Shown in pieces: positions 256-7,032 of a stretch of 64,000 bases of DNA. Each line of letters begins with the position of its first letter. The stretch's first letter is position 1. Under the pieces are notes generated by a model that was given only the letters and a program-made list of their open reading frames with translations, did no database searches and was not told the origin of the DNA. Origin of the DNA: Cyanobacteriota bacterium (lineage in GTDB: Bacteria > Cyanobacteriota > Cyanobacteriia > PCC-6307 > Cyanobiaceae); contig JBJOMY010000006.1 of assembly GCA_046052125.1 (NCBI GenBank), positions 32,001 to 96,000 of the forward strand, written 5' to 3'. Made by a program: the position numbers and the translations under genes.

Positions 256-507
256 ATGGCTGAAACGCCCGCGGCAGCACCCGAAGCCGCCCCCAAAAGC
301 CCGATCAAGAAGGGGAGCCTGGTGAAGGTGAACCGACAGGCCTACAACGCCAGCCTTGAAGCCCAGGCCAGCGATGGCGCGGCGCCCGACTATCTGTTCG
401 ACGGCCCGGCCGAGGTGTTGGTGATCAAGGGCGACTACGCCCAGCTGCGCTTCCGCCGCCCAGTGCCCGATGTGTGGCTGCGGGCGGACCAGCTGCAGGC
501 GTTCTAG
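256..507 (+). CDS. ndhO: NAD(P)H-quinone oxidoreductase (NDH-1) subunit O
   Basis: IKKGSLVKVNR...SLEAQASD...PDYLF.GP.EVL..KGDYAQLRFR.PVPDVWLR matches NdhO. Confidence 0.9.
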   Translation: MAETPAAAPEAAPKSPIKKGSLVKVNRQAYNASLEAQASDGAAPDYLFDGPAEVLVIKGDYAQLRFRRPVPDVWLRADQLQAF

Positions 508-1208
508 ATCTCGAGCCGGCGACGCTCCTCATGCAAACGGCTGCGGCGCTGCTTGGCCTCACGCAGCATTTCGCGGCCGTCGCGCAGGTATCCGTCCACA
601 TAGCCCATGGTGTAGCGCTCCAGCTCGGTGAGCGCGTCCTGCACTTGGGATAGGCAGTGATAGAGGCTCAGGCTGAAGCCATGCGCTGAAGCAGGTGCAG
701 CCAGGGAGCGGTAGAGCGCTTCCACCTTCTCCATCCGGGCCTGGCTTTGCTCGAGGAAGGCGCAGAAGCTTTCCATGAGCTCGTCGTCGTAAGGATCCGC
801 GGAGAGGGCCCTCAGCTGGGCGGGGAAAGGATTGATCACCTGCGCCAGCAAACGATCAATCGGTGCGTACACCTGCTGCAGCCAGGCCACCAGCTGGGCA
901 TCACCGCGGGCTGCTTCGGCGGTGGCGGTGCGCGCCGCACGGCCGGCCGCAGCGGAACGTGCCGTTGTTGAGCGGGTTGGGTCAACGCGGCCGACTTGAT
1001 ACAGGCGATCGTGCTCAGCGCGGCGCTGGGCATCGCCGAGCACCTCCCAGGCTGCGTTGAGCTCGAGGATCCGATGCTCATCGCCACCAGCGTCCGGGTG
1101 GTGCTGTTTCACGAGAGCGCGGTACGCCGCCTTCAGCTCTGCGGCACTCGCTGAGCTGGCCACACCGAGCACCGTGTAGGGGTCGGGGGCGGACTGTGGC
1201 GAGATCAC
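504..1208 (-). CDS. J-domain (DnaJ-type) protein
   Basis: DPYTVLGV...LKAAYRALVKQHHPD...LNAAWEVL J-domain with HPD motif; start uncertain (GTG 1208 chosen). Confidence 0.85.
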   Translation of the reverse strand: MISPQSAPDPYTVLGVASSASAAELKAAYRALVKQHHPDAGGDEHRILELNAAWEVLGDAQRRAEHDRLYQVGRVDPTRSTTARSAAAGRAARTATAEAARGDAQLVAWLQQVYAPIDRLLAQVINPFPAQLRALSADPYDDELMESFCAFLEQSQARMEKVEALYRSLAAPASAHGFSLSLYHCLSQVQDALTELERYTMGYVDGYLRDGREMLREAKQRRSRLHEERRRLEI

Positions 1209-1271
1209 GCGCTCCGGCAGCGGCTGCAGACCATCTTCATCGTTGGACCATCGATGGCTGCGGAGGAACAC

Positions 1272-1299
1272 AAAAAAGCCCCCCGCACAAGCGGGAGGC
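1272..1299 (-). terminator. Rho-independent terminator of porin 1
   Basis: Minus strand GCCTCCCGC-TTGT-GCGGGGGGC-TTTTTT. Confidence 0.8.
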
Positions 1300-1363
1300 C
1301 AAGGAGTTTTGGTGTGTGAGTAAGCGCGAGGTGCGCGTGTGAGGAGTGCTTCAGATCCGAGGA
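1272..1363 (-). ncRNA. Candidate 3'UTR-derived Yfr1-like sRNA of porin 1
   Basis: Exact ACTCCTCACAC (1347-1337) and variant ACTCACACAC (1321-1312) between stop codon and terminator; expression not shown. Confidence 0.45.
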
Positions 1364-2953
1364 TCAGAAGCGGAAGGTGGTTTGCACCAGGTAGCCGAAG
1401 CTGTTGAAGGTGTTGCCGTTACCGGTGAATTCACCCTGGGGACGCGACAGCCAGAAGATGGCCGGGGTCACAGCGATGTTGTCGCTGACCTGGAACTTGT
1501 AGAACCATTCCCAGGCGTAGTTGCCATCGGCAGGGGTGTTATCAGTGCCGCCGGTCACAAAGGTGGGCTGACCCACAGCCATGCCGAGCACGTTGCCCTT
1601 CACGAAGGCATCCTTCCAGTTCAGACCCACCATCCAGGACTGGGTGGTGAGGTTCACATCGGTGGAATCGGTGCGGCTACCGCCCACATTGCTGGAGGTA
1701 CCAATACCCCAACCAGCGCTGATGGAAGGCATCCAACCGCTCTGGAGAGGCTGCCAGTAGCCAGCCAGGTTGAAGGCGTTGGTGCCATTGTAGCCGGTCG
1801 ACACGGCAGAGCGAGCGAAGGGGGTGCCGCCTACGCTCACGCCGCGGTTGTCATAGGTGTACAGACCGGTGAGGTTCCAGTTCTTGCCGGTGTAGGCCAG
1901 CTGAACAGAGCCGGAGGCAGCAGAGTTGCCGTTGGCGATACCACCAGCCTCGGGGCTGCCTACATCACCGTTGCCGGCCACGTAGTTAGCGCCAAAGCTG
2001 AAGCCTTTCTTACCTTCTTTCCACCAGAAACCAGCACCGGCACCGAGCACCTGGCTGTTGGCCTGAGGACCACCAGCGAACTGGAAGATCTTCAGGATCT
2101 TGTCACCGGTGTAGACCGAAGGCCACACGGCGAACATGTCGTCCTGACGGACCCGGGGGCCAGCCACGATTGTGACGTTCTTACCAACGGGGAACTTGTA
2201 GTAGAGGCGATTGATCGCTACGACATCGCCGCCGTCAGCATTGCCCAGGTTCTCCTGGAAAGCAGCGTCCAGCTGAGAGAGGCGGGTGGGTTCAGCACCA
2301 AAGGCAGAGTCGCTGAAGTTACCAGCGCGCAGCTGGGTACGGAGCAAATCCTTACCGGTGAAGCTGGTGTCGAAGTTCAGGCGAACGTCGTAGTTGAAGC
2401 TCAGCGCATTGCGCAGGGCGTACTCCTTACCAGCCGCGTTGGTGTAGGTGTTGTTGTCGGTGACCTGCGAACCACCAAAGGTCTGACCGCCCAGCACCCA
2501 GCGAGTGTCGGCGCGCAGTTTGGTGGTGGTGGAGAACTGGGTGGCTTCCAGCTCGCCCACTTTGGCCTCGAGGCCATCCACGCGACCCTTCAGAACGGCA
2601 AGTTCCTTTTCGAACTCGGCCATCAGGCGCTTCAGCTCGTCGGTCACTTCAGTGATCCGGTCGAGGCAAGCGTTCAGCAGTGCGGCCGCTTCATAGCGGG
2701 TCATCGCACGCTCACCGCGGTAGGTGCCGTTGGGGTAGCCAGCGACACAGCCGTAGCGCTCGATCAGGTTGCTCAGTGCCTGGTAAGCCCAGTCGGTGGG
2801 CTTCACATCGGAGAACTGGGTGATCGAAGTCACCTGCTCCTCAGAGCCGTACTGACTCACGCCAGCGATGTTCAGGTCAGCGGCAGATGCAGCCACAGGA
2901 GCCATCAGGCCCAGGGCAGCAGGTGCCAGAAGAAGCTTCTGGAACAGTTTCAT
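1364..2953 (-). CDS. Cyanobacterial outer-membrane porin (SLH domain + OprB-type barrel, Som/iron-uptake-porin family), copy 1
   Basis: Signal peptide MKLFQKLLLAPAALG, SLH motif FSDVKPTDWAYQAL..LIERYGCVAGYP, coiled coil, FSTTTKL, C-terminal Phe (TTFRF). Confidence 0.92.
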   Translation of the reverse strand: MKLFQKLLLAPAALGLMAPVAASAADLNIAGVSQYGSEEQVTSITQFSDVKPTDWAYQALSNLIERYGCVAGYPNGTYRGERAMTRYEAAALLNACLDRITEVTDELKRLMAEFEKELAVLKGRVDGLEAKVGELEATQFSTTTKLRADTRWVLGGQTFGGSQVTDNNTYTNAAGKEYALRNALSFNYDVRLNFDTSFTGKDLLRTQLRAGNFSDSAFGAEPTRLSQLDAAFQENLGNADGGDVVAINRLYYKFPVGKNVTIVAGPRVRQDDMFAVWPSVYTGDKILKIFQFAGGPQANSQVLGAGAGFWWKEGKKGFSFGANYVAGNGDVGSPEAGGIANGNSAASGSVQLAYTGKNWNLTGLYTYDNRGVSVGGTPFARSAVSTGYNGTNAFNLAGYWQPLQSGWMPSISAGWGIGTSSNVGGSRTDSTDVNLTTQSWMVGLNWKDAFVKGNVLGMAVGQPTFVTGGTDNTPADGNYAWEWFYKFQVSDNIAVTPAIFWLSRPQGEFTGNGNTFNSFGYLVQTTFRF

Positions 2954-2965
2954 GGTCCTCACACC
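2954..2965 (-). promoter_or_regulatory. Yfr1-type sRNA target site over porin 1 RBS
   Basis: mRNA reads GGUGUGAGGACC-AUG; GUGUGAGGA is complementary to the Yfr1 seed UCCUCACAC. Confidence 0.65.
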
Positions 2966-3075
2966 AATTGAGGGAATCCCACAAGGGGATAAGTCAACTT
3001 ATCGCGCCGCAATAGCGCGGCACCTCGCAACAGCTACGGGCGGGTGTAGCGCAGAGCACACCGCAGAAAAGCAAT

Positions 3076-3101
3076 AAAAAACCCGCGACTGAAGCCGCGG
3101 G
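3076..3101 (-). terminator. Rho-independent terminator of porin 2
   Basis: Minus strand CCCGCGGC-TTCA-GTCGCGGG-TTTTTT. Confidence 0.8.
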
Positions 3102-3203
3102 CAGAGAGAGGACAAACGAGGTGTGGTGAGGAGACCAATTCAGGGGAAACTCTGAGGTATGAGGAGAGAGTTTCCCGACCGGATTGGCTTTTAGATCAAG
3201 AGA
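3076..3203 (-). ncRNA. Candidate 3'UTR-derived Yfr1-like sRNA of porin 2
   Basis: Hairpin GGGAAACTCT-[CTCCTCATACCTC]-AGAGTTTCCC (3176-3144), then CTCCTCACCACAC (3133-3121), then terminator. Confidence 0.45.
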
Positions 3204-4808
3204 TCAGAACTTGAAGGTGGTCTTGATCAGGCCGCCGAAGTTGGTGACGGACTTGTCCTGGGACAGGCCCTTACCGACTTGACCATCAAGCTGGCTGAGG
3301 TAGAAGATCGCGGGGGTCACGCTGATGTTGTCGGTGACCTGGAACTTGTACCACCACTCCCAGGCGTAGTTGCCGTCGTTGGGGGTGTTGTTGGAGTTGT
3401 CGTTGTAGCGGGTCACGAAGGTGGCCTGACCAACGGCCATACCCAGGGCATTGCCCTTGATGAAGGCGTCATCCCACTGCAGACCCACGTACCAGGACTG
3501 GGACTGAGGACCGTCGAAACCGAAAGCATCATCCTGGCCGTTATAGCCGTTGATGCCCCAGCCGGTGCTGATGGAGGGAACCCAGCCGCTGGTGGAAGGC
3601 TGCCAGTAGCCGCTCACACCGAAGGAGTTGGTGCTGTTGGCAGCAGCGCCCAGGAACTGGTTCAGGATGGTGCCGTTACCAGAGGCAACGCCATTGCTGT
3701 AGTTGTAAGCAAAGGCGATACCAGCGTTATCGCCGGCGTAGCCGAGCTGAGCGGTGAAGGTCTCCTGGGATCCGGAGGTACCAATACCGCCGACTTCAGG
3801 TGCGCCCACGTCACCGTTAGCAGCCACGTAGTTGAGGCTGAAGCTGAAGCCGTTCTTCTCGTACCACACACCGGCACCTGCACCCAGGTTCAGGTTGTAG
3901 GTACCAGGAGCACCGGCGTAGGTGAAGATGTCGAGGACGGTGTCAGCGGGATACACGCTGGGCCACATGGCCAGCATGTCGTCCTGACGAACCTTGGCGC
4001 CCACGGTGACGGTGATGTTGTCACCAACAGGGAACTGATAGAAGAGGCGGTTGATGGCCACCACGTCGCCGCCATCAGCGTTGCCCATCTCTTCCTGGAA
4101 GGCCACTTCCAGGTTGTTCAGAGCAGAGACACCGCCCACTGCGCCATCGGTGCTGCCATAAGCAGTTGCACTACCGAAAGCGGAATCGGCAAAGTTACCG
4201 GCACGCAGAGTGGTGCGCAGCAGGTCCTTACCGGTGAAGCTGGTGTCGAAGTTCAGGCGAACGTCGTAGTTGAAGGTGGTTGCACCCTCATCAGCCTTGT
4301 AGGCGTTAGCGAGAGTGGTGTTGCTGCCGCCGAAGCTGTTAGCGCCGAGCACGAAGGTGGCGATGCCCTTCAGCTTGGTGGTGGTGGAGAACTGAGTGGC
4401 TTCCAGCTCACCCACTTTGGCCTCGAGGCCATCCACGCGGCCCTTCAGAACGGCGAGTTCCTTTTCGAACTCCTTCATCAGGCGCTTCAGCTCGTCGGTC
4501 ACTTCGGTGATCCGGTCGAGGCAGGCGTTCAGCAGTGCGGCCGCTTCATAGCGGGTCATCGCACGCTCACCGCGGTAGGTGCCGTTGGGGTAGCCAGCGA
4601 CGCAGCCGTAGCGCTCGATCAGGTTGCTCAGCGCCTGGTAAGCCCAGTCGGTGGGCTTCACATCGGAGAACTGGGTGATCGAAGTCACCTGCTCCTCAGA
4701 GCCGTACTGGCTGACGCCAGCGATGTTCAGGTCAGCGGCAGACGCAGCCACAGGAGCCATCAGGCCCAGGGCAGCAGGTGCCAGAAGAAGCTTCTGGAAC
4801 AGTTTCAT
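3204..4808 (-). CDS. Cyanobacterial outer-membrane porin (SLH + OprB-type barrel), copy 2
   Basis: Same architecture as copy 1; ATG at 4808 preceded by GAGGA; ends TTFKF. Confidence 0.92.
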   Translation of the reverse strand: MKLFQKLLLAPAALGLMAPVAASAADLNIAGVSQYGSEEQVTSITQFSDVKPTDWAYQALSNLIERYGCVAGYPNGTYRGERAMTRYEAAALLNACLDRITEVTDELKRLMKEFEKELAVLKGRVDGLEAKVGELEATQFSTTTKLKGIATFVLGANSFGGSNTTLANAYKADEGATTFNYDVRLNFDTSFTGKDLLRTTLRAGNFADSAFGSATAYGSTDGAVGGVSALNNLEVAFQEEMGNADGGDVVAINRLFYQFPVGDNITVTVGAKVRQDDMLAMWPSVYPADTVLDIFTYAGAPGTYNLNLGAGAGVWYEKNGFSFSLNYVAANGDVGAPEVGGIGTSGSQETFTAQLGYAGDNAGIAFAYNYSNGVASGNGTILNQFLGAAANSTNSFGVSGYWQPSTSGWVPSISTGWGINGYNGQDDAFGFDGPQSQSWYVGLQWDDAFIKGNALGMAVGQATFVTRYNDNSNNTPNDGNYAWEWWYKFQVTDNISVTPAIFYLSQLDGQVGKGLSQDKSVTNFGGLIKTTFKF

Positions 4809-4820
4809 GGTCCTCACACC
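4809..4820 (-). promoter_or_regulatory. Yfr1-type sRNA target site over porin 2 RBS
   Basis: Same GGUGUGAGGACC-AUG leader as porin 1. Confidence 0.65.
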
Positions 4821-4913
4821 AAAAGAGGAATTGGGCGCAATGCGCCGTGTGGCCATCTTGCAGGCCATGCCAGAGGCAACACAGAGAACCTGTGCCACAA
4901 ACCGCAATGGCAT

Positions 4914-4927
4914 GTAGCGATCGATAC
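4914..4927. promoter_or_regulatory. Possible NtcA-binding site
   Basis: GTA-GCGATCGA-TAC fits GTA-N8-TAC, in the divergent intergenic region between porin 2 and the GT-C gene. Confidence 0.4.
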
Positions 4928-4989
4928 CCGGAAGCTGCGCGGCCTCCTTCGCCCAGACTTGCCTTCTTCTCTCCGAGCGGCGGCTGCCC

Positions 4990-7032
4990 GTGTTGAAGCG
5001 ATCGCCCTGGCTGTGGTGGCTGGTGCTCCTGGGGATCTGGCTGCTGGCCAGCGCCGCAGATCACACCTGGCTCCAGGTGGACCAGCGCCTGCCGGCCTGG
5101 GATCAGGCCGACTATCTCAATAGCGCCATTGATCACGGCCGAGCCCTGGGGCTGCTGCGCGGCGGCAGCTGGCCGGGCTGGCAAGGTCTGCTGGATCTCT
5201 CTCCCAAGATTCCGCCCCTCTCCTCGCTGGTGAGCGGCACGGTGATGGCGGTGACCGGTGAAGACGCCGATGCGGCCAGCTGGGCACTGAGCCTCTGGCA
5301 TGGCTTGCTGCTGCTGGTGGTAGCCCTCTGGGGCCGGCAACTACTCACGCCGGGCTTTGGGCTGCTCGCGGCAACCCTGGTGGCCCTGGCGCCAGCGCTG
5401 AGCGGCCTGCGGGTGGATTTCACCCTCGACATGCCCCTCACCGCCAGCTGCAGCCTGGCCCTGTGGCTGCTCTGGCGCTGGCAGCGCCCGCTGCACGGCG
5501 GCCGCTGGAGCCAAGCCCTGGCCGCTGGGGCCGCCGTTGCCGCGGCCCTCTTGATCAAGCAGAGCGCCCTGCTCGTGCTGGCCTTACCAGCGCTTTGGAG
5601 CTTTGGCCAAGCCCAGGCGCTTCCGCGCAGGCGCTGGCAGGCCTGGGCCGCACTAGCGCTGGTGTTGGCCCTGCTGCTGCCCTGGCTGCATCACAACTGG
5701 ATAACCACCTTGGGCGGCACGGAACGAGCCGTGATCACCTCCGGCGCCGATGAGGGCGATCCAGGCAGCCTCGATCCCCGGAGCCTGATCTGGTACCCGC
5801 GGCTCTGGGGCCAACAGCTGGGCGCCGCCACGCTGGCGGCTGGGCTGGCGGGCCTGGCCCTGTTGGGCTGGGAGCACCGCGGCCGCTGGCGGCAGCGCTG
5901 GCCCGCCGGCTGGGCCTGGCTGCTCGGTGTGGCGATCAGCGGCTGGCTCAGCACCAGCCTCAGCCCCAACAAAGACGAGCGCTACATCGCGCCAGTGCTT
6001 CCTTTATTAGTTCTGTTGCTCACGCGCGGCTGGTGGGCCCTGGGCAGCTGGATCGCCCAGCGCGGCGATGGGCGCTGGGCAGGGGGCGCCCTGGCGCTCG
6101 GATTAGCGAGCGCCGCTGGGATCAATGCCGGCGCCAGCCTCGCTCAGCTCGATCGCCAGCCCCCTTCGAGCGTGGTGGAGGCCATGGGCAGCCTGCGCCA
6201 GAGGGTGGGGAACGAACCCGCCACCCTGCTGATCACCGCCAGCAGCCCCGATCTCAACGAGCACACCCTCACGCTGTTGGGCCGCCAGCAAGGCGGGCAG
6301 ATCCTGGTGCGGCGGCTGGGGCGCAACCCCGGCTCTCAGGAGCTGGCCCTGGATCAGGGCCGTTGGTGGCTAATCGCCAGCGGCGACCAGGGCACTACCC
6401 GTCCATCAGCTCGGGCCCTGAGCCGAGCCGTGCGCCGCGATGGCCGCTACGAGCGGGTGCAGATCTGGCCGTGGAGCAAGCAACGCCAGCTCGAGCTCTG
6501 GCGCCGTAAACCCTCCGCGCCTGAGCCCCAGAGCTTCCAGCAGGGCTTCATCCGCCTGGCGCGGGGGATGGAACAGGGCCCCCGCGGGTTGCAGTCCGTG
6601 TTTGCCGCCATCGGCCCCTGGCATCTGCTCGATCCCCGCTTCAGCTACCAGCAAGACGTGCAGCGCTGGGCCAACGCCCAACTGCAACGCAACCCGAGTG
6701 ATCGCGATGCCCTCTGGAGCCTGGCCCTGGTGGCCGTGCTCCAAAACCGAGCCCAGCAGGCTGACCAGTGGTTTGCCCGGCTGGAGCAGGTGGAAGGCAG
6801 CGGCCACTGGGCTAGTGCCTACCGGAGCGTGGTGCAACTGGCGGGCTGGAACAGCTGCGGCGCGGCCCGCGTGGCTGAAACCACCAGCGCTGATCCCGCC
6901 ACCGGCTCAGTGCTCACGGCCCTGCGCGACCTCAGCCGCAGCCTCTGCTTCGACCCGCGAGGCCCCGCGGCACTGCAGCGCAGCCTGCCCGCAGCCATCA
7001 ACACCGTTAACAGCGGCCTCAAGCAACCGTGA
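4990..7032 (+). CDS. Lipid-carrier-dependent glycosyltransferase (GT-C fold, GT39/ArnT/PMT-like) with C-terminal helical-repeat-like extension
   Basis: Multi-TM; PAWDQADY in first loop, KIPPL, D(M)PLTA, LIKQS, NKDERY motifs. Confidence 0.75.
   Translation: MLKRSPWLWWLVLLGIWLLASAADHTWLQVDQRLPAWDQADYLNSAIDHGRALGLLRGGSWPGWQGLLDLSPKIPPLSSLVSGTVMAVTGEDADAASWALSLWHGLLLLVVALWGRQLLTPGFGLLAATLVALAPALSGLRVDFTLDMPLTASCSLALWLLWRWQRPLHGGRWSQALAAGAAVAAALLIKQSALLVLALPALWSFGQAQALPRRRWQAWAALALVLALLLPWLHHNWITTLGGTERAVITSGADEGDPGSLDPRSLIWYPRLWGQQLGAATLAAGLAGLALLGWEHRGRWRQRWPAGWAWLLGVAISGWLSTSLSPNKDERYIAPVLPLLVLLLTRGWWALGSWIAQRGDGRWAGGALALGLASAAGINAGASLAQLDRQPPSSVVEAMGSLRQRVGNEPATLLITASSPDLNEHTLTLLGRQQGGQILVRRLGRNPGSQELALDQGRWWLIASGDQGTTRPSARALSRAVRRDGRYERVQIWPWSKQRQLELWRRKPSAPEPQSFQQGFIRLARGMEQGPRGLQSVFAAIGPWHLLDPRFSYQQDVQRWANAQLQRNPSDRDALWSLALVAVLQNRAQQADQWFARLEQVEGSGHWASAYRSVVQLAGWNSCGAARVAETTSADPATGSVLTALRDLSRSLCFDPRGPAALQRSLPAAINTVNSGLKQP

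Follow-up and report, generated by a model that had tools for sequence, protein, structure and literature searches.

Few small RNA (sRNA) networks of cyanobacteria are widely conserved; that of Yfr1, Yfr2 and Yfr10 is one. The Yfr1 seed, its repression of som porins and its cell-wall and outer-membrane targets are described in several reports (PMC2796815, PMC6778093, PMC6974561, PMC2190773). When Yfr1 pairs at the ribosome-binding site (RBS) of the som porins PMM1119 and PMM1121, their translation is blocked, and the validated targets of Yfr1 are porin leaders with a GUGUGAGGA box (PMC2796815); in Nostoc, the predicted targets include porins and cell-wall enzymes (PMC6974561). Yfr10, Yfr12 and Yfr18 are reported to bear the same undecanucleotide, in a hairpin loop in Yfr10 and as the variant CAUAUAC in Yfr12, and their genes adjoin Yfr2-family genes with complementary 5' ends (PMC2518516). 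Yfr2 binds Yfr10 as well as Yfr1 and frees a porin leader from repression by Yfr1, and the RNAs designated "Yfr10-like" are said to vary in position and structure (PMC6778093). The subject here is a 64-kb stretch of the genome of a Cyanobacteriota bacterium (G000:C6:32001-96000; host genome 2.64 Mb, ~65% G+C), referred to throughout as the window, where two tandem porin genes, porin 2 upstream and porin 1 downstream, carry Yfr1-like seed copies in their 3' untranslated regions (3'UTRs) and a complementary box in their leaders.

Regulation from messenger 3' ends has been reported in several other settings. OppZ and CarZ of Vibrio cholerae are autoregulatory 3'UTR-derived sRNAs (Hoyos 2020, PMC7398697), and ApcZ is a cyanobacterial sRNA derived from a 3' end (PMC8136909). 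The 3'UTR of the icaR mRNA of Staphylococcus aureus pairs with its own Shine-Dalgarno region (PMC3868564), and 5'-3'UTR pairing is described for the hbs mRNA of B. subtilis (PMC5737220). No paper placing the Yfr1 motif in porin 3'UTRs was found in literature searches, in which the term "3 UTR" matched nothing (on account of the prime sign) and other terms carried the search.

We propose, with confidence a little better than even, that a Yfr1/Yfr10-type seed embedded in the porin mRNAs acts in trans within the network of Yfr1, Yfr2 and porin leaders, giving negative feedback. A preliminary description of the window, made from its sequence, had suggested a feedback circuit of this general kind; the Yfr1 background it cited (seed, som repression at the RBS, cell-wall targets) agrees with the four reports named first above.

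Distribution of the motif among porin genes

The porin sample comprised 30 loci from a family search of 151 genomes, five low-GC genomes, and 80 further regions; the sampled loci were all among the 150 best-scoring matches, with 368 weaker matches outside the sample. Together with porin 1 of the window, 122 loci supplied 125 complete porin genes, once a gene cut by a contig edge was excluded. A leader box was scored as GTGTGAG within 45 nt of the start codon, and a 3' motif as the exact word CTCACAC in the 150 nt that follow the stop codon.

The leader box is present in 79 of the 125 genes. Exact CTCACAC follows 41 of these 79, versus none of the 46 genes without a box; of 24 genera sampled 12 have it, and of 67 genomes 33. 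Conservation in orthologous porin 3'UTRs, which the preliminary description had set beforehand as a test that could refute it, is clearly borne out. The contrast holds in the high-GC subset of 114 genes (41 of 73 with the box vs. 0 of 41 without). The 3'UTRs of those 73 box-bearing genes hold 46 copies in 10,950 nt, compared to none in 118,308 nt of their own coding sequences; the reversed word CACACTC occurs in them six times, and neither CTCACAC nor the 8-mer CCTCACAC occurs antisense. In 500 dinucleotide shuffles of the high-GC UTRs, the number of genes with the motif averaged 1.64 and reached at most 7. The motif in porin tails is beyond chance, which is excluded for practical purposes.

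A FastTree phylogeny of the 125 proteins resolves three high-GC clades. In the upstream-type clade, box and motif occur together in 29 genes, 11 genes have the box without the motif, and three have neither; the downstream-type clade, beside which porin 1 of the window branches, has 11 with both and seven with just the box; and the third clade almost always lacks both, with 38 genes that have neither and six that have just the box. Stronger evidence of selection than the 41-vs-0 contrast is the persistence of the motif in two paralogue clades and many genera, amid UTRs that are otherwise unalignable. Within the genus, two layouts recur: 12 of 13 aligned UTRs have that of porin 2, a copy in the loop and then another in single strand, and five of five have that of porin 1, CACUCCUCAC(A/G)CGC, hairpin, ACUCACACACCAAAA and terminator.

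In other cyanobacterial families, represented by 27 porin genes, the leader box was found in 23 and the 3' motif in two, both from one genus (g72; L154, L169). Here, behind a porin gene whose leader reads GGGUGUGAGGAUC, come a hairpin, a single-stranded CCUCACAC (as CAU(A/C)CCUCACACUAAACACGAGCAA) and a terminator, possibly as an independent occurrence of the arrangement.

Predicted structure and covariance model

The seed is predicted to be unpaired and accessible: with RNAfold, the motif has a mean unpaired probability of 0.78-1.0 in 42 of 43 scored copies, vs. 0.40-0.68 for whole UTRs, the sole poorly exposed copy being the second one of locus L008 (0.31). Apical loops of 10-17 nt on stems of 6-14 bp hold 27 of the 46 copies, while most of the remaining 19 are in single-stranded RNA with a small hairpin on one side and the terminator on the other. 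The inner stems of the 27 use 18 distinct six-base arms, with all four Watson-Crick pair types represented at most positions.

A covariance model, R1, was built from seven of the hairpins, and 44 matches were realigned to it. In this alignment 97.2% of cells are paired, all seven pairs show compensatory changes, and the covariation score is 1.08, vs. 0.25 for shuffled alignments (0 of 500 reach it) and 0.06-0.20 for slid partners; since the alignment is model-fitted and includes the training rows, these figures are flattered. The raw stem table, compiled without model fitting, agrees with the R1 covariation.

Run over the 151 whole genomes, R1 gave 36 matches at E ≤ 0.05. Twenty-four lie within ~100 nt downstream of a porin gene, 17 of them outside the training set, and one more (in G145) is probably behind a porin gene. 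Four are Yfr10 genes of low-GC Prochlorococcus-like genomes (RF02362, 53.9-59.8 bits), each beside Cyano-1/Yfr2; two are genus-specific copies resembling hairpins on contig C1 of the host genome (see below); and five are elsewhere, two of which resemble free-standing RNAs with a loop seed and a terminator. Most high-GC genomes with an R1 match have a single one genome-wide, behind a porin gene. The porin 2 hairpin of the window scores 17.7 bits with an E value of 0.13 (L007:1440-1468, window 3146-3174), low because its loop has a C-to-U variant of the motif.

Two loci, L140 (G131) and L143 (G045), resemble free-standing Yfr10-like sRNA genes outside Rfam RF02362: each has a hairpin that shows ACUCCUCACACA in the loop and, directly after it, a terminator hairpin of its own.

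Candidate pairing partners: porin leaders and Yfr2

The UCCUCACAC of the 3'UTR is complementary to GUGUGAGGA of the leader. The core is invariant on both sides, so that only the flanking bases are informative as to the partner. For this comparison, Yfr2 5' ends were collected from 34 genomes, and Yfr1 was checked in 18. The base immediately 5' of CCUCACA fits the Yfr2 of the same genome in 32 of 39 elements (28 Watson-Crick, four G-U) vs. 22 of 39 that fit the gene's own leader; by UTR and Yfr2 base, the 39 comprise 18 U/A, 10 C/G, seven C/A, and four U/G. A Yfr1-like CUCC, matching Yfr2 GGAG, is present in 16 of the 46 copies. The suggestion in the preliminary description that porin transcripts might titrate RNAs complementary to Yfr1 gains some support from the better fit to Yfr2.

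Yfr2 itself varies at the corresponding position. In four genera (L246, L269-L276) its 5' motif is GAGGGG instead of GAGGAG (GUGUGAGGGG for GUGUGAGGAG), while Yfr1 is unchanged, ACUCCUCACAC, in 18 of 18 genomes, so that the Yfr1-Yfr2 pair there becomes a G-U wobble. Three of the genera with variant Yfr2 have the matching C in their porin-tail loops. Variants of the core with one mismatch comprise 12 that are wobble-compatible (C>U, A>G), the CUCAUAC of the window among them, and six transversions, four of these terminal, a bias that fits a pairing constraint against a G/U-rich partner.

Proposed mechanism and alternatives

As proposed, a conserved structured 3'UTR module displays the seed (C/U)CCUCACAC(A), in a hairpin loop or single-stranded, ahead of the sole terminator, and would pair in trans, whether still in the mRNA or as a 3' fragment shielded by the terminator. 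Its partners would be the GUGUGAGGA box that overlies the Shine-Dalgarno sequence of porin leaders and the complementary 5' motif of Yfr2-family sRNAs. By the direct route, more porin mRNA would bring more seed, occlusion of porin RBSs, and less porin translation; by the Yfr2 route, more seed would titrate more Yfr2, leaving more free Yfr1 and again less porin translation. Both routes have the same sign, and would produce dosage-dependent negative feedback common to the porin paralogues; the odds between them are roughly even. In these cells, few messages outnumber those of the porins. That the porin mRNA tails are a messenger-borne arm of the network, co-evolving with Yfr2 and acting as competing endogenous RNAs that titrate Yfr2 and thereby determine how much Yfr1 is free, is a more tentative proposition, and we consider it rather unlikely.

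Classic Yfr1 targets that themselves bear the Yfr1 seed would add an mRNA-borne member to the network. For picocyanobacteria of fresh, brackish and marine waters, dosage feedback is predicted between outer-membrane proteins that rank with their most abundant. The porin tails also offer a testable bacterial case of 3'UTR autoregulation or RNA competition beyond the enterobacterial Hfq setting, and an RNA motif not yet in Rfam is defined, a hairpin behind porin genes displaying YCCUCACACA in its loop. If the porin tails do act as Yfr2 sponges, the whole Yfr1 regulon (envelope, carbon and nitrogen genes) would be coupled to porin transcription, with the mRNA as a sponge for a sponge.

A number of findings weigh against the proposed trans-acting feedback. 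Thirty-two of the 73 box-bearing high-GC porins have no exact motif (many of them show recognisable variants); none of the 11 low-GC Prochlorococcus-like porins has it, six of which retain the leader box; and in the closest relatives of porin 1, two at 86-88% identity, both copies are lost. These losses and absences make the module dispensable. The link between box and motif is clustered on the tree, so the 41-vs-0 contrast rests on few independent events. Complementarity to a gene's own leader halts at 8-9 bp, with the GUCC flank that would match leader GACC in 0 of 46 copies, and no covariation was found between the flanks of own leader and own 3' motif. The association of the adjacent base with Yfr2, whose C/G cases come from about four genera, is no more than suggestive. 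Whole-sequence duplex energies did not separate real UTRs from shuffles (UTR-leader z -1.3 to +0.2); the same test, also run with a Yfr10-like RNA, gave z of -0.1 and -2.7 for leaders against genuine Yfr1, and is uninformative for GC-rich RNA in the absence of accessibility terms. Finally, the metatranscriptome contigs compared with the window leave 1200-1326 and 2978-3104 uncovered, and cannot show transcript ends.

Box and 3' motif stand on one transcript and are complementary over 8-9 nt including GAGG, and the restriction of the motif to box-bearing porins would also suit a closed loop in cis, in which the 3'UTR seed folds onto its own Shine-Dalgarno sequence, limiting re-initiation or marking the mRNA for a double-strand nuclease as in icaR. 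This is improbable in our judgement: in addition to the lack of covariation between same-gene flanks and of any extension toward GACC, of 20 leaders with G before the core, 16 are opposed by an A; at the adjacent position, 17 of the 39 elements do not match the leader of the same gene; and a loop-displayed seed works in free-standing sRNAs, so that no cis tether is needed. Intramolecular 5'-3' pairing, which the preliminary description had listed among the possible modes of action, thus draws no support from covariation between own leader and 3' motif. We give slightly less credence again to the idea that the elements are separate sRNA genes, paralogues of Yfr1 or Yfr10 that sit behind porin genes, are each driven by a promoter within the final part of the porin coding sequence (CDS), and are functionally apart from the porin mRNA. 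Downstream-type UTRs, at 52-64 nt from stop to T tract, do have the Yfr1-like order of small hairpin, unpaired seed and terminator, two of them give weak sub-threshold matches to the Rfam Yfr1 model (22.5 and 23.9 bits), and free-standing seed RNAs exist in the same genomes. However, the motif in these UTRs starts 12-30 nt past the stop, leaving no room for an intergenic promoter; a search of 1100-5100 for sigma-70-like promoters, a weak test for cyanobacteria, found none; there is no terminator before the motif, so the porin mRNA carries it regardless; and in 12 genera the motif holds its place just past the porin stop, whereas other seed RNAs relocate.

The least probable of the alternatives, to our minds, is that the hairpins have no seed function, serving for stability or termination or as a protein-binding site for which the CU-rich loop is kept. 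The motif hairpin itself precedes a T tract in several genomes (L019, L063, L015) and could terminate transcription, and cyanobacterial RNA-binding proteins are poorly known. Yet the conserved 7-8 nt are the exact Yfr1/Yfr10 seed core and lie in loops or single strands, not in stems; their variants are biased to wobble-compatible transitions; the adjacent base tracks the Yfr2 variant; and the motif is confined to genes with a complementary leader box.

Features of the window

Table 1. Positions of the porin genes of the window and of the elements in their leaders and 3'UTRs.
Feature	Position	Strand	Description
Porin 2, upstream gene	3204..4808	-	SLH + OprB, 534 aa; stop TGA 3206..3204
Porin 1, downstream gene	1364..2953	-	SLH + OprB, 529 aa; stop TGA 1366..1364
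Porin 2 leader box GGUGUGAGGACC (GGTGTGAGGACC as DNA)	4809..4820	-	abuts AUG
Porin 1 leader box GGUGUGAGGACC (GGTGTGAGGACC as DNA)	2954..2965	-	abuts AUG
Porin 2 5'UTR hairpin GGCGCAUUGCGCC	4834..4846	-	5' of box; recurs in many orthologous leaders
Porin 2 3'UTR hairpin	3144..3176	-	10-bp stem, 13-nt loop (predicted fold)
Porin 2 loop copy CTCCTCATAC = CUCCUCAUAC	3166..3157	-	C-to-U variant (CUCAUAC)
Porin 2 second copy CTCCTCACCACAC = CUCCUCACCACAC	3133..3121	-	single-stranded; one C inserted relative to the motif
Porin 2 intrinsic terminator	3102..3081, with T tract 3074..3102	-	9-bp stem, T tract
Porin 1 exact Yfr1 undecanucleotide ACTCCTCACAC = ACUCCUCACAC	1347..1337	-	16 nt past stop; predicted unpaired, mean p 0.78
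Porin 1 small hairpin GCGCACCUCGCGC between motif copies	1324..1336	-	predicted fold; kept in 5/5 aligned genus relatives
Porin 1 second copy ACTCACACAC / ACUCACACACC	1321..1312 / 1321..1311	-	predicted unpaired, mean p 0.99
Porin 1 intrinsic terminator	1300..1277, with T tract 1271..1300	-	10-bp stem, T tract

Both proteins are SLH-OprB cyanobacterial porins of the som type, with N-terminal SLH and a beta-barrel, and in both the two domains score above the curated Pfam cut-offs (for porin 2, OprB 1.1e-11 and SLH 2.9e-09). The genes are in tandem on the minus strand, with a DnaJ-domain gene (1271..507) next. The identical leaders reported earlier to precede the AUG of each were located (4820..4809 and 2965..2954), as were the two CU-rich copies ahead of the terminator in each 3'UTR, all of the sequences named for them being present on the minus strand. 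The leader box is a putative Yfr1 docking site, overlapping the Shine-Dalgarno GAGG. In the 64-kb window GGTGTGAGGA occurs twice, vs. 0.13 times expected, and CTCCTCAYAC also twice, vs. 0.22 expected; for neither do any of 100 shuffles reach two.

Three of the four motif copies are variants, the exact 11-mer being found only as the first copy of porin 1; the C-to-U change in the loop copy of porin 2 preserves pairing to G as a wobble. The elements sit 16-85 nt past the porin stop codons. A terminator scan found none between stop codon and motifs for either porin, so full-length porin transcripts must carry the seed.

The GGCGCAUUGCGCC hairpin is common to leaders of upstream-type porins. Many porin leaders also have a CCUC word 8-10 nt 5' of the box GAGG (UUCCUCUUUUGGUGUGAGGA, CCCUCAAUUGGUGUGAGGA; in the window at 4821-4832 and 2966-2975, minus strand), which could mask the Shine-Dalgarno sequence within a small hairpin. 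On the other side of the genes, GATC words are frequent in the first 22 nt past the TGA stop, often as TGATC..TGATC, both in the window (3203-3182, 1363-1342) and in relatives: they are found in 17 of 41 motif-bearing UTRs, seven of 32 leader-only ones, and four of 41 others. They may reflect shared ancestry, or a processing or methylation site.

Public RNA data gave 20 matches to the window, all of them metatranscriptome contigs; the four that were compared cover both porin CDSs. A 93-nt contig of run X5 on 3130-3222 has 16 letters on the CDS side and does not bridge the stop codon.

Related RNAs elsewhere in the host genome

The exact 11-mer occurs six times in the 2.64-Mb genome, vs. two for its reversed control. 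One of the six belongs to a canonical Yfr1 on contig C5 (RF01116, 63.8 bits), 67 nt behind a guaB-like open reading frame (ORF) whose name is taken from its C-terminal peptide, and a Yfr2/Cyano-1 homologue on contig C2; two further sites combine the motif with a terminator. To call the porin circuit "self-contained", as the preliminary description did, is therefore too strong, because the genome also has canonical Yfr1, Yfr2 homologues and other motif-bearing RNAs. The shorter word CTCACAC is found 189 times genome-wide, vs. 160 for CACACTC, 152 for CTCTCAC, 377 for CACTCAC, and 892 for CACCCTC, and no enrichment of CTCACAC in hairpin-loop context was seen over the whole genome: the motif signal is local to a few loci and not a genome-wide property. 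A third porin paralogue (C4:255628-257142), with ~42-47% identity, has neither leader box nor 3' motif. Near it, a truncated SLH fragment is fused in frame before a P-loop GTPase-like ORF (GFLGAGKTTLLNHIL).

Contig C1 has three near-identical hairpins with ACUCCUCACAC in the loop, at 164464, 618749 and 716343 (L001-L003, L184), each ~35 nt 5' of a short conserved ORF (MAAFSMFFCDQERCRIQPVRAMDPEHAI..., 33 aa, without a Pfam match). The unit of hairpin and ORF is present in two copies in the genus relative G069, one near a glutamine-II riboswitch; no Rfam family matches the C1 hairpin units.

At C4:319229 (L183/L185), 105 nt behind a YkuD L,D-transpeptidase gene, is an element of ~110-130 nt with a single-stranded CCUCACAC and a terminator at its end. 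It is kept in five of five genus genomes and in none of 21 other orthologue loci (26 of 30 orthologue loci having been inspected), and a Yfr2-like GGUGUGAGG follows it in two of the genus genomes. It was considered as a second case of the 3'UTR module and rejected, being conserved only in the genus (five of 26 loci) and resembling a free-standing Yfr10-like gene; it is probably a free-standing Yfr10-like sRNA of the genus. At C1:266578 (L182), a gene for a secreted alpha/beta-hydrolase (Abhydrolase_1; weak DUF1400) is followed after 55 nt by a hairpin, single-stranded CCUCACAC and a terminator, with a Yfr2-like sequence just 5' of the hydrolase gene on the opposite strand.

Comparison with known RNA families and systems

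At the Rfam gathering thresholds, the whole window yields only three tRNAs. The thresholds for the models of Yfr1 (RF01116) and Yfr10 (RF02362) are 38 and 43 bits; neither model matches window 1000-5200 at E ≤ 10, and across 19 related porin loci the best RF01116 scores (23.9 and 22.5 bits) are sub-threshold and RF02362 finds nothing. Chance-level matches to mir-43_2, ylbH and suhB/mmgR in the window region were rejected as noise. The porin-tail element is a Yfr1/Yfr10-class seed built into the 3'UTR of Yfr1-targeted mRNAs, and a non-member by the curated models.

It resembles Yfr1 in the exact, unpaired ACUCCUCACAC of porin 1, and in the hairpin-seed-terminator layout and length of the downstream-type UTRs. 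It differs in position, Yfr1 being a gene of its own in the guaB-trxA neighbourhood (in this genome one copy, behind the guaB-like ORF) and the window elements sitting behind porin stops, and in falling short of the RF01116 score.

The closest known relatives, absent from the preliminary description, are of the Yfr10/Yfr12/Yfr18 class, whose members occupy variable loci and show the undecanucleotide in the loop of a hairpin (PMC2518516, PMC6778093). As in Yfr10, the seed lies in an apical loop in the porin 2 hairpin (3176..3144, with CUCCUCAUAC), and R1, although trained on porin-UTR hairpins alone, recovers genuine Yfr10 in four genomes. As reported for this class, sequence and synteny outside the motif are poorly kept and a C-to-U change is tolerated (CAUAUAC in Yfr12, CUCAUAC in the window; PMC2518516, PMC6778093). 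Known members, however, are free-standing and often directly 5' of a Yfr2 homologue (Yfr10 adjoins Yfr2/Cyano-1 in high-light Prochlorococcus), whereas the porin-tail elements share the mRNA terminator, and those of the window are below the RF02362 score and have no adjoining Yfr2. The published "Yfr10-like" Northern probe of WH8102 has one exact site in a scan of 401 genomes of the family, as a stand-alone RNA ~210 nt behind a sigma-factor gene; the notion that it maps behind a porin gene was accordingly rejected, and a contig scan returned only unrelated bacteria.

The likeness to icaR is a C-rich motif in the 3'UTR whose complement lies in the Shine-Dalgarno region of its own message. In contrast to icaR, the porin motif occurs in free-standing RNAs as well, and no covariation of own leader and 3' flanks was seen; the invariant core carries no information on pairing of the two ends, and at the adjacent position 17 of 39 elements mismatch. 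IpeX originates behind a porin gene, nmpC, and is similar in being an RNA from a porin-gene 3' end that represses other porin mRNAs. In E. coli, where it belongs to the DLP12 prophage, ompC is a reported target (PMC3333887). Organism and sequence are unrelated, and IpeX is phage-borne, hitting host porins and not its own gene.

OppZ and CarZ offer the parallel of an RNA from an mRNA 3' end that pairs with its own transcript in negative feedback (PMC7398697), processing and repression being predicted in the porin case. Like them, the porin elements are in the 3'UTR and share the one terminator of the mRNA. In Vibrio, the OppZ and CarZ target site is inside their own operon, and their action is operon-specific. 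The porin seed, in contrast, copies that of a global sRNA, and should reach paralogous porins, other Yfr1 targets, and Yfr2.

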